61,403 nt of DNA, filler included, from Actinobacteria bacterium UBA7524 (GCA_002478275.1; 3 parts of 3 records of this genome joined end to end with filler, not necessarily neighbours in it), one strand, 5' to 3'; shown: positions 30,001 through 36,000, counted from the whole stretch's first letter. Numbers: made by a program.

Positions 30001-33000
30001 TCAAGCGAGAAGGAGAGAAGGCTGGGGTTGAACCGCTCACCGTCCCATCTCACGGTCGCCGTGGCATTGTAGCCGGTGTCCGCAGTGACAGTTATCCGGT
30101 ACTCCCCCTCAGCGTCCTCGGGGTCGTAGTATTCCGGCTGAGTGAGCTGCTTATTGAAGTTCGTCGCACCGAACGGGTAATCGTCGTACATCCCATCGGC
30201 ACTTCCGAGAGAACCCGCATGCGCGATGAACTCGACCTCGTCGTACCAACCGGTGCGCTCGTTGTCGATGCGCACCTGGCACTGCGCGGCCCCACTCTTC
30301 CCGTAGTTGACGCGTACTGAGAGTATCTCGCCGGACGCGAGTGCCTGATCCGGCTCGGCCTGGTACTCCTTCGGCGGATCCTTCTTGATAGCGTCCTCAC
30401 CCTCATACTCGTAGAAGTTCGAATCCGATGACTCGACGAACAAGTCGAGGAGCGCACAGCCCATGAGCAACATCGATGCGGCTAGGATGCTGACGACGAT
30501 GACCACGCGGTGCCTGCGTGCTCCTGGCATGATGTACTCCCTGTCAGCCTCGACTTCGACGCTACCACGATGAGGTGCCCATAGCGTGCCGGAATGCCTC
30601 GTCGAGCATACTTCACCTGGGCGAGTCGTCGTAGACTAGTGGCGGACGACTTCAGTCAGGATCAACTCCAATCCGATAATCAGATCACATGATGATGAGC
30701 CCCGGGCAAGCTGCGCATATGTCGAACCGCTTGTTCGGCGTCACGGTCCGGGAATCTCGAGGTCCCGACATATCTTCGCTGCAAGACATTCACTGATCTC
30801 GCGGTGACGAGGGACGGTAGACGCCTTTCCGGCCTCGCGGCTCGATGCGCTTGTTGGGCAGATTGCGGCACCTAGAACACGGCCAGGGCAAACGCGCCCA
30901 GCGCCAACCCGGACACAAGCGAGATGACACCCACGGCGACATCGAGCGGCCGTTTGCCTTCACCGTAGCTCTGCGTGACCGGCTTGAAGCGGACCCAGAA
31001 GGCGCCGAAGAGCACGAGGTAGGCCGCCACACACAGATAGATCCACTTCGCGTTCAGACTCCCCGGTGTGGCAGCGACCCTGACCGCACCGGCGGCTGCG
31101 GCGCCGACGAACAGCCCGAGCACCCGGTAGAACCACGGAGCGTCGAAGTCGAGAGGCTCCCTGACCTCCGAGAAGGGGACGTCTGCCATTGAGCGCAGAC
31201 TACCGACGAACCCCTCAGGATCCTGGAGCGCGTTCACATAGAGGATCCCGCCGCTGCGCATGCCCACGGCAACGGCCCGGATGCCGCCAGAGACGGTGCG
31301 TTTGACGCTGACACGCCCGATGTCCCCAACAGGGTGTTCATCCCTTTGCGCATCGCACGTGCGAACGAGGCTCAGCTCAGTGAGGGTCCACACGGTATGT
31401 GCGTAGCGGGCGAACGAGCGCGCGAGTAGGGCCCGGGAGATGAGCAGGAGGCAGAACAGTACGGACAGCAAGAGAACGGCGACGAGTGAGCCGCGTGCGA
31501 GAAGGTCCGCACAAGAAAGTGCGGCTCCGAGCGCAATGAACGTGACAAGACGCGTGTACGCCTCGAGCCGCCTCGACATCTCGGTCGTCGAGAGGCCGAA
31601 CTCCGCGCCGCCCTCTCTCAAGCGATGCTCCTTCAACTGCGGTGAAGTACGTGGCTGCCCGGCACCAGCCGCACGATTCTGCCCAACGTCTCGGCGCTTC
31701 AGCTGACGCGCCCCCCTGTCGCCTTGCCATCCGAGCATACATCACATGGCGGCGCTTTTCTGCTGGAAGTGCCTATCAGGCCGCTGTCGCTCTATCCCAG
31801 CGTGGTGATTGCATATATGAACAGAGCTAGGCCCGCTGCTGCTACAGCCAATCCGGCGATGCCCAAAGCCCTCCCGCGACCCTTGAGCGCCTGCAGCCCG
31901 AGTATCATTGCCAGCAACAAACCGATTGGAAACATCGCCATCAACGGGATACGCACCCACCCCGGCGGGTCGATCCACACGGAGGACGCATAGATCATGA
32001 GTGAGCCGATTGCCGAGAACACGCCGGCAATCAATGCAGCAGCTCCGGGGATCTTCGAGCGTCGTGCTCCAGAGTCCACCATGCTTGCCCCCACTCGCTT
32101 GGTTCTGCCCATCGTCTTAGGGCGTAACCTGCGGCGCCTACTCCCGATTCCGACCCGAGGATACCTCACACGGCGTTGTCAGGTTGACGCCCTGGTTGGG
32201 CAGTGGGCCGCCCGCAGCAGCGAAGAGCCTACGGCAGAGCCGTTTCATAGATGCCCAGCTCCTCAAAGTCCCACGAGAACTCGAATCCTGTCTGTCCGCT
32301 TTCGACATCGAAGTACTGAACCGTTTCCAGCACTCCGCCGGGACCGAGACCGCCTCCAGATACGCCGAACTTTCCGCTTGGAGCGTTACTCGCAGCAAGC
32401 TCGCCGCCCACCGGCACTAGATACTCGCCTGCCGCCGTCGTGACCGTCGGAAAGTTGTGTTCGACTCTTATCGGCAATGTGGTCTCGCTGGAGTTCGTGG
32501 CTTTGGCAATCACGGTCAAGCGTATCTTGCCTGAGACAGGTTGCACGTACTCGACTCTGGAGCCTTGCCCATCGGATATGTCCGGGCCCGGCCCCGAGCT
32601 GGTTTCTACGGTCACCTCAAGGTCGCCGAGATCAGCCACAGAATCGAAAACCGGGGCACTTTCTTGTGTGGAAGGCGCATTCGACACCGGGGTCTCAGAG
32701 CAACCGACCGCCACAATACCGAGCACGAGCACAGAGATACATACGATGCATCGGTTACGTACGTCCACAAGCCCCCCATTCATCTGCCCAACGTGGTTGC
32801 GCATAAGCTGCGCGCCGTGCGCTTTCAGGATACGACAACCTCGTGCGCGTCAGCTTGATGCGCTGGTTAGACCGCGGCGGCGCCCAATCCACTCCTGTTC
32901 AGGAGACTCTTCAATCGCGAGCGGTACCGCTTCAGGGTCTCGTAGTCGAGCACCACCCGATCGCCTTGCGAGGGCGCCGGCGACATCCCAGCGGCCTTCA

Positions 33001-36000
33001 ACTTTGTAACCGCGCGCTTTGAGTATTCTCGCTCACCGTGCGCGATCAGATTGCGGACTACTCCGAGCTCCACGATGCCCACGCGTTCGTCGTCGTTTCG
33101 CCATCCGGCGCCGGCAGCTGAAAGAAGTTGCTCCGCCCAGTCCTCGATTCCGTTGCAACCGACCAGATCCTCCCGACCAAGGAAATCGGCGGCCGCCGCT
33201 TCCGCCAGCGCAAAGTAGTGAAGAAATGCGGACGAGTAGAGGGGCCGCGTGTTCCTGAGGGCGGAGATGTGCTGTTCGAGCGAGACTCGGTAGAGGGTGC
33301 CTTGCGTCTCGAACTCAAGGTTAGCGGCGGTGGGGTTCAGCTGAAGCAACTCTTCCCATCGCATGGCTGCTGGCAGCAACGTCATCCTGCTGCTCTCGAG
33401 AAAGCGAGTGATGCTCGCCCATTCATCCCAGATCAAGCCGACCCCCAGTCGGTCTAACGTTTTGGCGCTTCAGCTGCGCGCCGATACCTGACAGTGTAGC
33501 CGAGCGCTCCGGCGCGTCAGCTGGAAGCGCTTGTTAGCCACGCGACCGACGCCGATGATGCTCCGGATCACGAACCGCATGTAGGCAGGCGACCACGATG
33601 ATCCCGGCGTCATCGACGCGGTAGTACAGACAGTATGGAAAGCGCGGCAGCAAGAAGCGGCGAGATCTACGGTAGACAACGGGATGTGCGGCAGGGAAAC
33701 CGAGAATGGAGTCCACCGCCGAATCCATGGCATCAATGAACTCGTCGCCGAGACCCGGTCGCTGGAGTTCATACCAGTCGCGCGCCTCCGCCACGTCTGC
33801 GACTGCCGATGTAAGGAACCAGGCGCTGCGCACGCCGATCAGCCGCGAAGCCGCCGCTTGGCGTCGTCCCAGGAGATGACTGCGGCGTCGCCGCTGTCGA
33901 GCTCGTCGAGCCTCCGGTCAAGCACCTTCTGCTGCGCCGGAGTGATATGCAACGCCTCGGGCTTGGTGCGGAGGCTGTCCCACAGGTCTCCAATCAAGGC
34001 GAGACGCTCCTCAGGCGCGAGCTTGTTGATGTCGATCGCTGGTGTACTCATGATTCGATGATACGCCCCCAGCCTTACCAGAACCAAACCGGATTCTTGC
34101 TGTGGCTAACGTCTCTTGAGATGAGCCGCGAACGAAGTGAGTCGGCTCGATCTCGGGGTTAGGCACCGCGAATTCAGATACTAACTNNNNNNNNNNNNNN
34201 NNNNNNNNNNNNNNNNNNNNNNNNNNNNNNTTAATTAATTAANNNNNNNNNNNNNNNNNNNNNNNNNNNNNNNNNNNNNNNNNNNNCGGCGTACCCGCCG
34301 AAGGCCTCACCCGCGTGCTGGTCGTAGCGGCCAGCCCCAACGACGAGGGCGCCGTGGTAGGACAGATCGTGATGGTGGTGGATGTCACCGAGGAGCCCGC
34401 CGCTCTCGAGCCGATCAGCCCCGCACTTGCCGTGTCCATCCCCGGCACCACGTACGCCACGCTCGGTGACGCCTATCCGTTCGGCGGGGGAGCCGGCGTG
34501 GCAGAGGCGCTCGCTCGCGCTCGCGATGAGGTGCCGTACCCGTACGTAGCGCTCTCCGCAGACGAGCTCGCCGGGGCCNNNNNNNNNNNNNNNNNNNNNN
34601 NNNNNNNNNNNNNNNNNNNNNNNNNNNNNNNNNNNNNNNNNNNNNNNNNNNNNNNNNNNNNNNNNNNNNNNNNNNNNNNNNNNNNNNNNNNNNNNNNNNN
34701 NNNNNNNNNNNNNNNNNGCCGTGACGGCCGCGGGAGGCATGAACGTCACGCTGCCCGCCGACATGAGCGTGTTCGACGGCAGCGATCTCTTCACGTTCGA
34801 GCGCGGCGAGCAGATGCTGAGCGCCGCCGAGCTGCATGCGGTGCTCAAGGGAGCGCCCTACCTTGCCGATGGAGAACGGGAGAGGCTCGACGCGTCGCTC
34901 GCCGAGGGGCTGGCGGCCGTCCTGGCAGCCGAGCCGGAGTCGCTGACGGGGGCCACACGCACGAACCTCGCAGCGGATGCACTGGCCCGTATAGCGGGGT
35001 CGCTCTAGCGGGAGAATCGAATAGCGGGTTTGCAGGATAGTGTGACGGGATGTAACGTAACTCATAGCGGCCTCAGCCCGTTATCCAGATTATGGAGTGT
35101 TTGATCGTCGTGGCGCGCCCGCAAGGGCGCACCGTGTTGTCCGAGGGAGTGATCTGATGGGGGACGAGTTGCTGGCCACAGATGAGGTCAAGAAGCGTCG
35201 GACGGGCCTTGTTGTAGCGCTGATCGCCCTCCTCCTCGTTGCCGGAGGCACGGGCTTCATGTACGTGACGGGCTTCGGGCCGTTCGCGACGGACGAGCCC
35301 GAAGTGGTGGCGCCCAAGCCCACCGACACGGACGATGCCGAGAAGGCCGACGAGGCCGACGAGGAGACCACCACGCCGGTGGCCAATCCCACCACGGTGC
35401 CGCTTCCTCCCGCTGCCGCCCAGGAGGCGATGTACTGGGAGCAGGTGGCGAGCGCGAGCACCATCGGTGAGCTCGTGAACAACGAGTTCGCCGCGTTCTC
35501 GCTCAGCCAGGTCACCGAGTCGGCCGACCTCGCGAACATCCGCGTGAAGGGCACCTACCGCAGCGGCGAAGAGCTGAACGGGTGGCTGGTGCTCAAGTCG
35601 TACGAGGGCGCGTGGTACTTCTACTCGATCACCGCCGACGGTCACACGGGCACCACGCCCGACCTGGGCGACCCCGATCCGGACGTGCTCAAGGCGATCG
35701 TGGATCAGCAGGCAACCAACCAGGACGTGTACGCATCGATCCTCGACGGCACCTACAACGCGTTCACGGTAGATAAGATCGTGGTAGGCTCCGGCGCCAA
35801 GACGCTCGAGATCACACTCTCGGGTCCTGGCAAGACCGGCGACAAGGGCAAGATCACCACGATCACGAGCGACAGCGGTTCGGGCTCGCAGTGGTTCATC
35901 ACCTCGTTCTCGCAGTAGCCCTCCACTCTGTGGGGCCACTCGCACGATCGGCCGCGCACCTCTCCTCGGTGTGCGGCCGAACACTGTAAGATGATGCAAG

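Follow-up and report, generated by a model that had tools for sequence, protein, structure and literature searches.

An attC cassette array on a contig of Actinobacteria bacterium UBA7524, read as the distal part of a chromosomal integron

Introduction

Among the integrons closest to the element described here are the Vibrio cholerae superintegron, whose array holds about 180 cassettes, and integrons of the 'inverted integrase' type (Treponema/Spirochaetota and cyanobacterial), in which the integrase gene intI lies upstream of the cassettes on the same strand. The attC sites of integrons are about 57-141 nt long, and canonical sites carry an extrahelical T and an extrahelical G in that order. 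Cyanobacteria are reported to belong to the 'inverted' group (Boucher 2007).

The inverted-integrase layout is described in PMC13323075, and also in an Archaea preprint. Clusters of attC sites lacking an integron integrase are termed CALINs (Cury et al. 2016, PMC4889954), and in the same work In0 elements but no complete integron were reported in Actinobacteria. A first-pass annotation of the DNA studied here had stated that Actinomycetota are held to lack integrons. Two integron surveys and one 2026 paper agree with it, describing Actinobacteria as without complete integrons or virtually without integrons, whereas a 2021 review already counts Actinobacteriota among the integron-bearing phyla.

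We analysed a stretch of 61,403 nucleotides from Actinobacteria bacterium UBA7524 (GCA_002478275.1), hereafter called the window, which includes contig C42. With a probability of about 0.9, the region from about 30850 to 34186 (minus strand) represents the distal part of a chromosomal array of integron cassettes assembled by IntI, the intI side of which lies beyond the contig end.

Results

Two models were used to locate the sites. A1, an nhmmer profile made from the five window sites alone, returned 25 places in the source genome at E<=0.1, on the contigs named by the first-pass annotation, and R1, a covariance model built from A2, an alignment of 20 sites of the source genome, returned 23 sites at E<=0.01. 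Run without filters on the whole of contig C42, R1 detected five sites on one strand with scores of 30.8-86.2 bits (E 1e-20 to 3e-6) and nothing at E<0.5 in the remaining 13.5 kb. These attC sites, at 31681-34164 (minus strand) at the end of C42 within the window (Table 1), each lie right behind a co-oriented ORF, and all positions agree within 3 nt with those first annotated. The opposite strand gave R1 matches at two of the five sites only (16.1 and 14.6 bits); as the plus strand scores 31-86 bits against at most 16, the orientation is unambiguous and opposite to that of the ORFs. As a negative control, R1 was run on five sister-order genomes (at least 99% complete, no intI) and gave 0 matches; as a positive control, it found sites adjoining intI in named Gammaproteobacteria and Acidobacteriota loci.

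Table 1. Cassettes and attC sites of the array, in window coordinates.
Feature	Position	Strand	Description
Cassette 1	33458-34109	-	Toxin-antitoxin pair: antitoxin 33839-34051, ParE-family toxin 33534-33833
Cassette 2	32792-33457	-	189-aa ORF 32867-33436; Rx4H (HEPN-like) motif; stop TAA inside R''
Cassette 3	32113-32791	-	ORF of ~184 aa, 32229-32783; N-terminus signal-peptide and lipobox-like
Cassette 4	31687-32112	-	Small membrane-like ORF of ~112 aa, 31792-32130; no known family
Cassette 5	30872-31686	-	Membrane ORF ending at 30872; listed as 288 aa from 31738
attC s5	34104-34164	-	61 nt; R'' GCCTAAC, R' GTTAGCC; R1 50.4 bits, E 2.5e-11
attC s4	33452-33539	-	88 nt; R'' GGCTAAC, R' GTTAGAC; R1 83.1 bits on the + (bottom) strand, 16.1 on the other
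attC s3	32786-32872	-	87 nt; R'' GTCTAAC, R' GTTGGGC; R1 86.2 bits, 14.6 on the other strand
attC s2	32107-32201	-	95 nt; R'' GCCCAAC, R' GATGGGC; R1 64.9 bits
attC s1	31681-31781	-	101 nt, partly decayed; R'' GCCTGAT degenerate, R' GTTGGGC intact; R1 30.8 bits, E 2.9e-6
Truncated sixth attC	30853-30859	-	R'' GCCCAAC, L'' arm next, 3' half decayed; read from the sequence, moderate support

The window sites are 61-101 nt long, and the distance from ORF stop to R'' is 0-27 nt, with two stops falling within R'' itself. Sites s3, s4 and s5 each retain both inverse core sites (R'' RYYYAAC, R' GTTRRRY) intact. The bottom strand of s5, the first site on the contig, beyond which the array runs on past the contig end, folds at z -3.4 against shuffles, and the fold of s4 shows two single-base bulges, both on the 3' arm; s1 taken alone folds no better than shuffles (z 0.07). 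Cassette 5 and the sixth site fall beyond the range first annotated (31678-34186). The sixth site gave a partial nhmmer match only (E 6.2) and nothing significant with R1. A second half-site occurs near 30726-30744, and this region is likely the distal end of the array.

Covariation was evaluated on the 20 own sites of A2, in which an 18-pair stem was 92.5% paired and 14 of the 18 pairs showed changes on both sides. Slid controls were 30-37% paired, and 0 of 500 shuffles equalled the observed pairing or covariation score. The stem was likewise 92.5% paired, with compensatory changes at 15/18 pairs, in 79 sites of four relatives, their alignment being fitted to the R1 model. Two bases 6 bp apart on the 3' arm are extrahelical, a T in 16/20 and a G in 19/20 own sites (72/79 and 75/79, respectively, in the relatives), and the unpaired central spacer has 6 nt opposite 2 nt. 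The two strands differ in R1 score by about 70 bits.

The cassette boundaries were then analysed by asking if the 6 nt that end the R' of each site read as the reverse complement of the 6 nt that open the R'' of the following one. The R'' of s4 is the exact complement of the s5 R' tail, that of s3 complements the s4 tail and that of s2 the s3 tail; the R' of s2 has GAT for GTT (one base off), the R'' of s1 mismatches the s2 tail, and the R'' of the truncated sixth site matches the s1 R' tail at 6/6 positions. In the window, 3/4 neighbouring pairs carry the footprint, whereas it occurs in 0/5 comparisons within one site and in 1/16 of the non-adjacent pairs. The four relatives showed it in 60/75 neighbouring pairs, compared with 13/79 within one site and 157/1667 non-adjacent pairs. 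Judging from the sequence, this complementarity between neighbours is the footprint of past cassette insertion at G|TT. Structure, strand asymmetry and boundary complementarity thus support the earlier identification of the window repeats as attC sites of a genuine integron cassette array.

Cassette limits were set by the G|TT rule. The antitoxin of cassette 1 belongs to Unstab_antitox / TIGR02574 (NCBIfam 57.7 bits), with Pfam scores of 56.5 and 35.2 bits for the Unstab_antitox and ParE pair, and the TAA stop of the toxin falls within the R'' of its own attC. Neither the ORF of cassette 2 nor that of cassette 3 matched any family in Pfam, NCBIfam or PADLOC; for the former, HEPN_RiboL-PSP at 0.85 is an atlas lead only. 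The true start of the cassette 5 ORF is probably inside the cassette, e.g., at the Met at 31579. In the four other array contigs, all 10 Pfam-positive ORFs (92 scanned) lie on the attC top strand, and the cassettes of the other array contigs include Phd/ParE, HI1420/Gp49, bPH_4, DUF2510 and Amidase_6. The cassette content first annotated was therefore recovered for Unstab_antitox/ParE, Phd/ParE, HI1420/Gp49, bPH_4 and DUF2510, but not for C_GCAxxG_C_C, which was absent at E<=1e-5 among the scanned ORFs. No resistance cassette occurs in the window array. An arr gene at 28162-28719 lies outside the array on the opposite strand.

Integron integrases were searched for in relatives of the same order by means of TIGR02249. 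Canonical intI genes scored above the cut-off of 265 bits in 77/121 sampled genomes of the order (347-492 bits) and in 0/14 control genomes, and sister orders carried intI in 0/158 genomes. Among other classes of the phylum, 20 of ~369 sampled genomes (~5%) exceeded the cut-off, which extends the case beyond a single order. That the order carries integrons, as proposed in the first-pass annotation, is thus borne out; as an order-level trait they are common there but not confined to it. The IntI of the same-family genome G034 scored 475.7 bits and aligned end to end with VchIntIA 2A3V (E 8e-91), gap-free across the IntI-specific insert. It contains the stretches GLRLMEC, GKGGKDR, HTLRHSFATH, LGH and IYTH, which we take to hold the catalytic residues. 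In the IntI tree, the sequences of the order group together (SH-aLRT 98) with a single outsider placed among them, and the family labels appear to cluster only in part. No description of these integrases was found in the literature searched. In public annotation the proteins are already named as integron integrases.

In five relatives (G019, G018, G051, G012, G073), every array that A1 and R1 located lies downstream of intI and shares its strand. The same holds for each of the 10 named Coriobacteriia/Actinobacteria loci with matches, in agreement with the co-directionality first annotated. The array starts 0.4-1.5 kb downstream of intI in G019, G012, G018 and G051, and in the closed genome G018 about 60 sites over ~65 kb were counted among the matches listed. 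R1 sites reached 78 bits in closed relatives, where they occur almost only in intI-adjacent arrays, and 82 bits in loci titled Coriobacteriia. By eye and without statistics, 17 of the 39 relatives' loci listed show 2-3 TTAYRCRGAC-like repeats followed by ...TT|GTTAG, 100-170 nt after the intI stop, which are candidate attI sites; also by eye, the 7-mer predicted from the R'' of the first cassette occurs once, at the candidate attI place, in G019 and G012. The window holds nothing comparable to these repeats. The genes flanking intI differ among five families. In five closed relatives they are housekeeping or transport genes, with no transposon or plasmid genes beside intI; closed relatives thus have both chromosomal neighbours and large arrays.

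Discussion

None of the contigs of the source assembly, which is 83% complete, carries intI, attI or Pc. The assembly's best TIGR02249 match (81.5 bits against the cut-off of 265) looks Xer-like, in line with the absence of an integrase first annotated, and none of its contigs matches the intI-flanking DNA of G034. The element therefore counts formally as a CALIN, with at least two attC sites and intI absent from both contig and genome. It differs from a CALIN in being probably an assembly-broken fragment of a complete integron, because the contig stops before the array does, on the side where intI would lie.

The alternative that weighs most is a relic array, a CALIN in the strict sense, in which the integrase has truly been lost and the decaying cassettes no longer move by themselves; we regard it as possible rather than probable. 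It would account for the lack of any intI fragment, but assemblies of this family do break at this very place, and binning readily misses such short pieces: two of the four other family genomes, G034 and G055, have a complete intI at most 200 nt from the end of a contig that lacks the array side, one of these contigs being only 2.8 kb long. The sites of the source genome also appear more worn than those of the four relatives. Both AAC/GTT triplets are intact in 16/23 own sites genome-wide, and one is broken in 7/23 against 5/79 in relatives (Fisher p 0.005, the sites not being independent); neighbouring pairs on the own array contigs are perfectly complementary in 5/12 cases against 60/75, a figure that N runs and missed sites may explain in part. 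However, sampling in the relatives covered the 20 kb closest to intI, while the array in the window is a distal end, where decay is expected, and three of its four junctions are still perfect. A relic is further favoured by the same-family genome G015, which is 99% complete, has no intI and keeps 7 R1 matches.

It is very unlikely that the array contigs, C42 included, are binning contaminants from another integron-bearing organism. They are short (2.9-5.6 kb), and the 12.5 kb of other genes on C42 find only patchy DNA matches in same-family genomes (80% over 625 nt, 72% over 1 kb), so that the array is tied to the lineage by short stretches and attC type, not by synteny. Yet R1, built from own sites only, recovers the attC type found beside intI throughout the order, all four other same-family genomes carry such sites, stretches of C42 are 72-86% identical to those genomes, its G+C of 0.60-0.67 is like that of its neighbours, and contamination of the assembly is estimated at 0.58%. 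Close to refuted is the view that the repeats resemble attC by chance and represent terminator-like hairpins or extragenic palindromes that have nothing to do with integrons, as G+C-rich hairpins right behind ORFs in a genome without integrase might suggest, since it predicts neither the strand asymmetry, the two flipped-out bases, the RYYYAAC/GTTRRRY ends nor complementarity between neighbours rather than within a site, and since R1 sites sit almost only in the intI-adjacent arrays of closed relatives, also occur beside intI of other phyla and are missing from the five intI-less sister-order genomes.

If the window holds the distal part of an integron array, each unit would consist of a promoter-less or self-contained gene followed by its attC; the genes here are four ORFs without a known family and one ParE/antitoxin pair. 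The bottom (non-coding) attC strand, which is the plus strand of the window, is predicted to fold into the hairpin recognised by the integron integrase, in which the R boxes pair, the central spacer stays unpaired, T and G are flipped out from the 3' arm of an 18-bp stem, and the loop varies. Cassettes would have been inserted singly through IntI recombination at G|TT, a step suggested by the boundary footprint. By analogy with relatives, in which the inverted-integrase layout runs intI, attI, cassettes, the missing intI, attI and cassette promoter are expected past 34186, upstream on the same strand. At its low-coordinate end the array appears to be decaying, s2 and s1 being degenerate and the sixth site truncated, which fits a position far from attI. 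By analogy with Vibrio arrays, the toxin-antitoxin cassette probably has a stabilising effect on the array.

The kind of element is known, and the host lineage is new: a matching integrase and large arrays occur across an actinobacterial order, in a phylum described in the literature cited above as nearly integron-free. With class 1 and other mobile integrons the element shares the recombination chemistry and attC logic. It differs from them in the absence of transposon or plasmid genes by intI in the five closed relatives, in attC sites that are homogeneous within an array, and in a window array free of resistance cassettes.

Similarity to the V. cholerae superintegron (VchIntIA, VCR) is seen in the relative's IntI, which has the specific insert and full-length similarity to 2A3V, in attC sites with R boxes, unpaired spacer, two extrahelical bases on the same arm and variable loop, and in long, homogeneous arrays rich in toxin-antitoxin and unknown cassettes. 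Vibrio intI, however, is divergent from its array whereas that of the order is co-directional; the host belongs to another phylum and is Gram-positive by lineage, and the arrays are smaller.

The co-directional intI of the order, upstream of the array on the same strand, is the known 'inverted integrase' arrangement. The host, an anaerobic Coriobacteriia-type actinobacterium, sets it apart from the described cases, as do IntI proteins only 55-59% identical to those of Treponema and Cyanobium and attC sites forming a sequence family of their own, with R1 finding nothing in two spirochaete loci. One cyanobacterial locus (L077) has a co-directional R1 match, and in our IntI tree the clade of the order is sister to a clade of Cyanobacteriota and Treponema/Spirochaetia (SH-aLRT 97).

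attC Sites at the End of C42

The first-pass annotation had claimed five attC-like repeats behind co-oriented ORFs on C42 (18151-34186), the middle one of the three contigs of a single draft genome that make up the window, with N spacers between them, and all five were placed at its high-coordinate end (s5 to s1, s5 being nearest to the contig end). For this analysis, 20 sites of the same genome were aligned on the non-coding strand (alignment A2) and, with the structure taken from single-strand folds, converted into the covariance model R1. An unfiltered R1 search of the whole contig scored the five sites at 86.2, 83.1, 64.9, 50.4 and 30.8 bits on the + strand and matched only two of them on the - strand (16.1 and 14.6 bits), with no further significant or decayed site on C42 at E<0.5. 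Since the minus strand carries every gene of the region as well as the top strands of the repeats, the array starts from the contig end (34186) and runs to lower coordinates. R1 retrieved 23 sites across the genome at E<=0.01, and a profile from the five window sites alone gave 25 genome-wide matches at E<=0.1, falling on the same contigs that the annotation had named as carrying sites. Zero R1 matches were obtained in five nearly complete sister-order genomes without integron integrase.

Features of the C42 array and its surroundings (window positions)
Feature	Position	Strand	Remarks
attC s5	34104-34164	- (top)	directly behind minus-strand ORF
attC s4	33452-33539	- (top)	directly behind minus-strand ORF
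attC s3	32786-32872	- (top)	directly behind minus-strand ORF
attC s2	32107-32201	- (top)	directly behind minus-strand ORF
attC s1	31681-31781	- (top)	directly behind minus-strand ORF
GTTAGTA	34179-34185	-	contig end, 14 nt ahead of s5 R''
189-aa cassette protein	32867-33436	-	Rx4H motif (RNLIAH), characteristic of HEPN nucleases
Membrane ORF, extra cassette below s1	ends 30872	-	followed by R''-like box
GCCCAAC	30853-30859	-	6/6 partner of s1 R' tail; recognisable L'' arm next
arr	28162-28719	+	rifampin ADP-ribosyltransferase
Hemerythrin gene	27684-28091	-	next after arr

The bottom strand of a textbook attC site consists of an R box, an unpaired central spacer, an L box with extrahelical T and G and a variable terminal structure, and the anatomy of the window repeats matches this description. 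When the + strand of s2-s5 was folded as single-stranded DNA, the terminal box paired RYYYAAC with GTTRRRY and was followed by an unpaired spacer (6 nt vs 2 nt), a stem of ~18 bp with two isolated unpaired bases, 6 bp apart, on its 3' arm, and a terminal loop that varies in length. Of the two unpaired bases, one is T in 16/20 and the other G in 19/20 sites of this genome; the corresponding counts in relatives are 72/79 for T and 75/79 for G. In A2, 92.5% of the stem cells are paired and 14 of the 18 pairs show changes on both sides; slid controls were 30-37% paired and none of 500 shuffles equalled the observed pairing or covariation score.

Integron recombination crosses over at G|TT of R', so that the six bases following the G are part of the next cassette, with whose R'' they pair. 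This footprint was found in the window, where s4, s3 and s2 each have an R'' that is exactly reverse-complementary to the R' tail of the preceding site and imperfectly so to their own R'. Perfect complementarity thus occurred at 3/4 junctions, 0/5 within-site pairs and 1/16 non-adjacent pairs, both partners being mutated at the failing junction, s2 to s1. The match of R'' to the previous site also accounts for the R box being less paired within a site than the stem (78.6% in A2, with misses at variable positions). In four relatives with sites placed by R1, the pairing was perfect at 60 of 75 neighbouring junctions, 13 of 79 within-site pairs and 157 of 1667 non-adjacent pairs. A terminator or REP-type repeat was rejected, as neither predicts complementarity between neighbouring sites.

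Cassettes and Probable Distal End of the Array

Below s1, the R''-like box behind the membrane ORF opens a truncated sixth site whose 3' half is missing, with another half-site around 30726-30744. The sixth site, which gave no significant R1 or profile match, was recognised by reading the sequence and by its junction match, and the region below s1 probably represents the array's decayed distal end. At the contig end, GTTAGTA agrees with the R'' of s5 in only 4/6 bases. It could be the R' of an earlier site, with a mini-cassette that lacks an ORF, or a product of the break in the assembly.

The window cassettes encode an Unstab_antitox/TIGR02574 antitoxin with a ParE toxin, the 189-aa protein, a lipoprotein-like ORF and two small membrane ORFs, the lipoprotein-like and membrane ORFs being without family; 4/5 cassettes had no match in Pfam, NCBIfam or PADLOC. 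Among the atlas clusters that have a family, HEPN_RiboL-PSP (0.85) comes nearest to the 189-aa protein, and a HEPN-like nature is put forward as a lead only. On the other array contigs 10 of the 92 scanned ORFs matched Pfam families (Phd+ParE, HI1420+Gp49, Unstab_antitox, bPH_4, DUF2510 twice and Amidase_6), all ten on the attC top strand.

An arr gene without adjoining attC (Pfam Arr-ms, 160.6 bits; NCBIfam NF033144, 210 bits vs a cut-off of 130) is encoded on the other strand some 2 kb past the decayed end of the array, with a hemerythrin gene beside it.

Integron Integrases and Arrays in the Order

The profile of the integron integrase IntI, TIGR02249 (cut-off 265 bits), matched 86 of 121 sampled genomes of the same order at E<=1e-30, 77 of them above the cut-off (347-492 bits), with matches in 22 of the 25 families; 14 control genomes gave zero matches. 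Within the class, the 104 positives among 301 genomes all belong to this order (other orders, 0/158). The IntI of the same-family genome G034 aligned over its full length, IntI-specific insert included, with the solved VchIntIA (2A3V; E 8e-91).

In five relatives (G019, G018, G051, G012 and G073) the window-only profile, and later R1, detected arrays exclusively to one side of intI, on the strand of intI, and in G019 the array ORFs are also co-oriented with intI. The array was likewise co-directional with intI in 10/10 match-bearing loci titled 'Coriobacteriia bacterium' or 'Actinobacteria bacterium', so the proposal that intI and cassettes share one direction in this order held. Closed G018 carries at least ~60 sites among the R1 matches listed (1,033,593-1,098,275), adjoined by intI at 1,100,424-1,101,368, and the G012 array spans at least ~40 kb among those listed, both sizes being lower bounds since only 150 candidates per genome were scored. 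The further proposal, that the order carries large chromosomal integrons, was supported by these sizes and by intI in 77/121 genomes. The other four genomes of the own family all contain R1 sites, 3-16 each, including G015, which is without intI.

Upstream of intI lie chromosomal genes: those for PNPase, RibF and TruB in G012, and for transporters, a kinase and RlmL in other relatives. They differ in 5/5 closed or near-closed relatives, and a conserved position of intI across families is therefore unsupported. Distant clusters of 3-8 attC sites without integrase (CALINs) were observed hundreds of kb from intI in closed G051 (C1:896687-904313), G012 (C1:566593-572639) and G018 (C1:931082-933099), together with scattered single attC sites.

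Among the 39 relatives' loci listed, 17 were noted by eye to have two to three TTAYRCRGAC-like repeats within 100-170 nt after the intI stop, then ...TT|GTTAG. The 7-mer predicted from the R'' of the first cassette occurs in exactly one copy, at this repeat-plus-GTTAG spot, in G019 and G012; the spot is a candidate attI. Several other relatives have in its place a gene for a BrnT-like toxin ('KHGIDF') or a Phd-like antitoxin with palindromic operator, which begins no more than about 100 nt from the intI stop (loci L023, L044, L047, L012, L011, L027, L035+L036 of G073; L045, L025).

No Integron Integrase in the UBA7524 Assembly

The UBA7524 genome itself (83% complete) yielded only Xer-like TIGR02249 matches, at most 81.5 bits vs the cut-off of 265. 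Its integrase may have been missed in assembly, since the same-family assemblies G034 and G055 break directly after intI and the window array runs off its contig on the intI side. It may also have been truly lost, as the AAC/GTT triplet is broken in 7/23 own sites vs 5/79 in relatives and the own junctions are less often perfect (5/12), although this comparison of decay is biased because the relatives' sites were sampled nearest to intI. The intI-bearing contig of G034 matched the own genome at a repeated ~0.9 kb element on contig C31 and over one 81-nt stretch on C49, none adjoining intI, and so provides no evidence for or against an assembly gap.

On C31, positions 4211-5668 and 10761-11888 hold a repeated segment of ~0.9-1.4 kb, 79-90% identical to G034:C38:10855-11755, and an R1 site is present near this repeat in both genomes (C31 1581-1641; G034:C38:11678-11776). 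Against same-family genomes, the 12.5 kb non-cassette part of C42 gave nothing but patchy matches, and its synteny likewise favours neither a missed nor a lost integrase. The DNA flanking the N run at 22952-23041 on both sides (C42 4613-5115) matched several places per same-family genome at 78-89% identity and is a multi-copy element.

Distribution and Phylogeny of IntI

In a phylum sample of 401 genomes, 23 exceeded the TIGR02249 cut-off, 20 of them outside the order (6/10 in family f40, 7/21 in f42 and single genomes in other families); the unpublished G380 and G441 are among these 20 and count in these tallies only. R1 sites lay beside intI in 11 of 16 outside-order loci examined, nine of them co-directional and the two of G595 divergent. 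A quick ML tree of 110 IntIs was computed with SH-aLRT support only, and its root is unsure because the two Xer proteins of the own genome form very long branches that do not fall on one side. A single clade (SH-aLRT 98) unites the order and the titled Coriobacteriia/Actinobacteria records, the outsider G538 being nested inside, and this clade is sister to Cyanobacteriota plus Treponema (SH-aLRT 97). The IntIs of f40, f42 and f91 form a separate clade (SH-aLRT 100), and those of G595, G665 and G346 lie among Nitrospirota, Thermodesulfobacteriota and Pseudomonadota. The name Anaerosomatales for the order is that of the first-pass annotation; NCBI taxonomy places Anaerosomatales in Coriobacteriia, Actinomycetota, and the nearest named IntI records are titled accordingly.

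G595, of another class, has two integron integrases (L140 and L151), both with divergent (classical) arrays; their grouping with Nitrospirota/Thermodesulfobacteriota and KSB1-like sequences suggests acquisition by transfer. The IntI of G538 (L137; family f92, outside the order; 481 bits) stands next to G021 in the order's clade beside a co-directional array of at least five sites, a position that could reflect transfer between classes or a taxonomic near-neighbour.

We give a probability of roughly two in three to the reading that integrons are old, mostly vertically inherited and common in deep-branching anaerobic Actinomycetota, citing intI in 64% of the sampled genomes of the order and across 22/25 families, and the second, separate IntI clade, which is found in another two to three families belonging to other classes. 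If this is true, the textbook absence of integrons from Actinobacteria would be an artefact of sampling cultured Actinomycetes, monoderm (Gram-positive-type) hosts would be able to maintain large, active cassette arrays, and the reason why Gram-positive lineages miss integrons would become testable in a natural host.

Comparison with Known Integrons

In the available text of the IntegronFinder 1 and 2 surveys (2016: PMC4889954), Actinobacteria have only In0 elements and a few CALINs and no complete integrons. As far as their accessible text goes, the 2016 and 2022 surveys and a 2026 metagenome study (PMC13323075) describe Actinobacteria as without complete integrons or virtually without integrons, and treat the Gram-positive gap as unexplained. 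A 2021 review, in the part available, lists Actinobacteriota among integron-bearing phyla without detail. The statement that Actinomycetota are held to lack integrons agrees with the two surveys and the 2026 study and is qualified by the review. A term search of the Anaerosomatales description paper returned no mention of integrons or integrases, and no description of integrons from Coriobacteriia, Anaerosomatales or other uncultured Actinomycetota came up in searches of open-access main text and bioRxiv. Public annotation already names proteins 'integron integrase [Actinobacteria / Coriobacteriia / Thermoleophilia bacterium]'.

The window and, above all, its relatives present a whole Coriobacteriia-type order with canonical IntI, candidate attI sites and arrays of dozens of cassettes in which the recombination footprint is still visible. 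Chromosomal integrons have a broader host range than has been described, and the result is a warning that distribution claims made from isolate genomes are not transferable to uncultured lineages. A large pool of unknown-function cassettes from subsurface anaerobes is made visible, and a natural Gram-positive-lineage system becomes available for asking what limits integrons elsewhere. The co-directional intI corresponds to the known 'inverted integrase' arrangement, according to the available text of the 2026 study. Taken together, the element is an ordinary integron whose mechanism is not new; its novelty lies in its distribution, in a new and well-supported host lineage.
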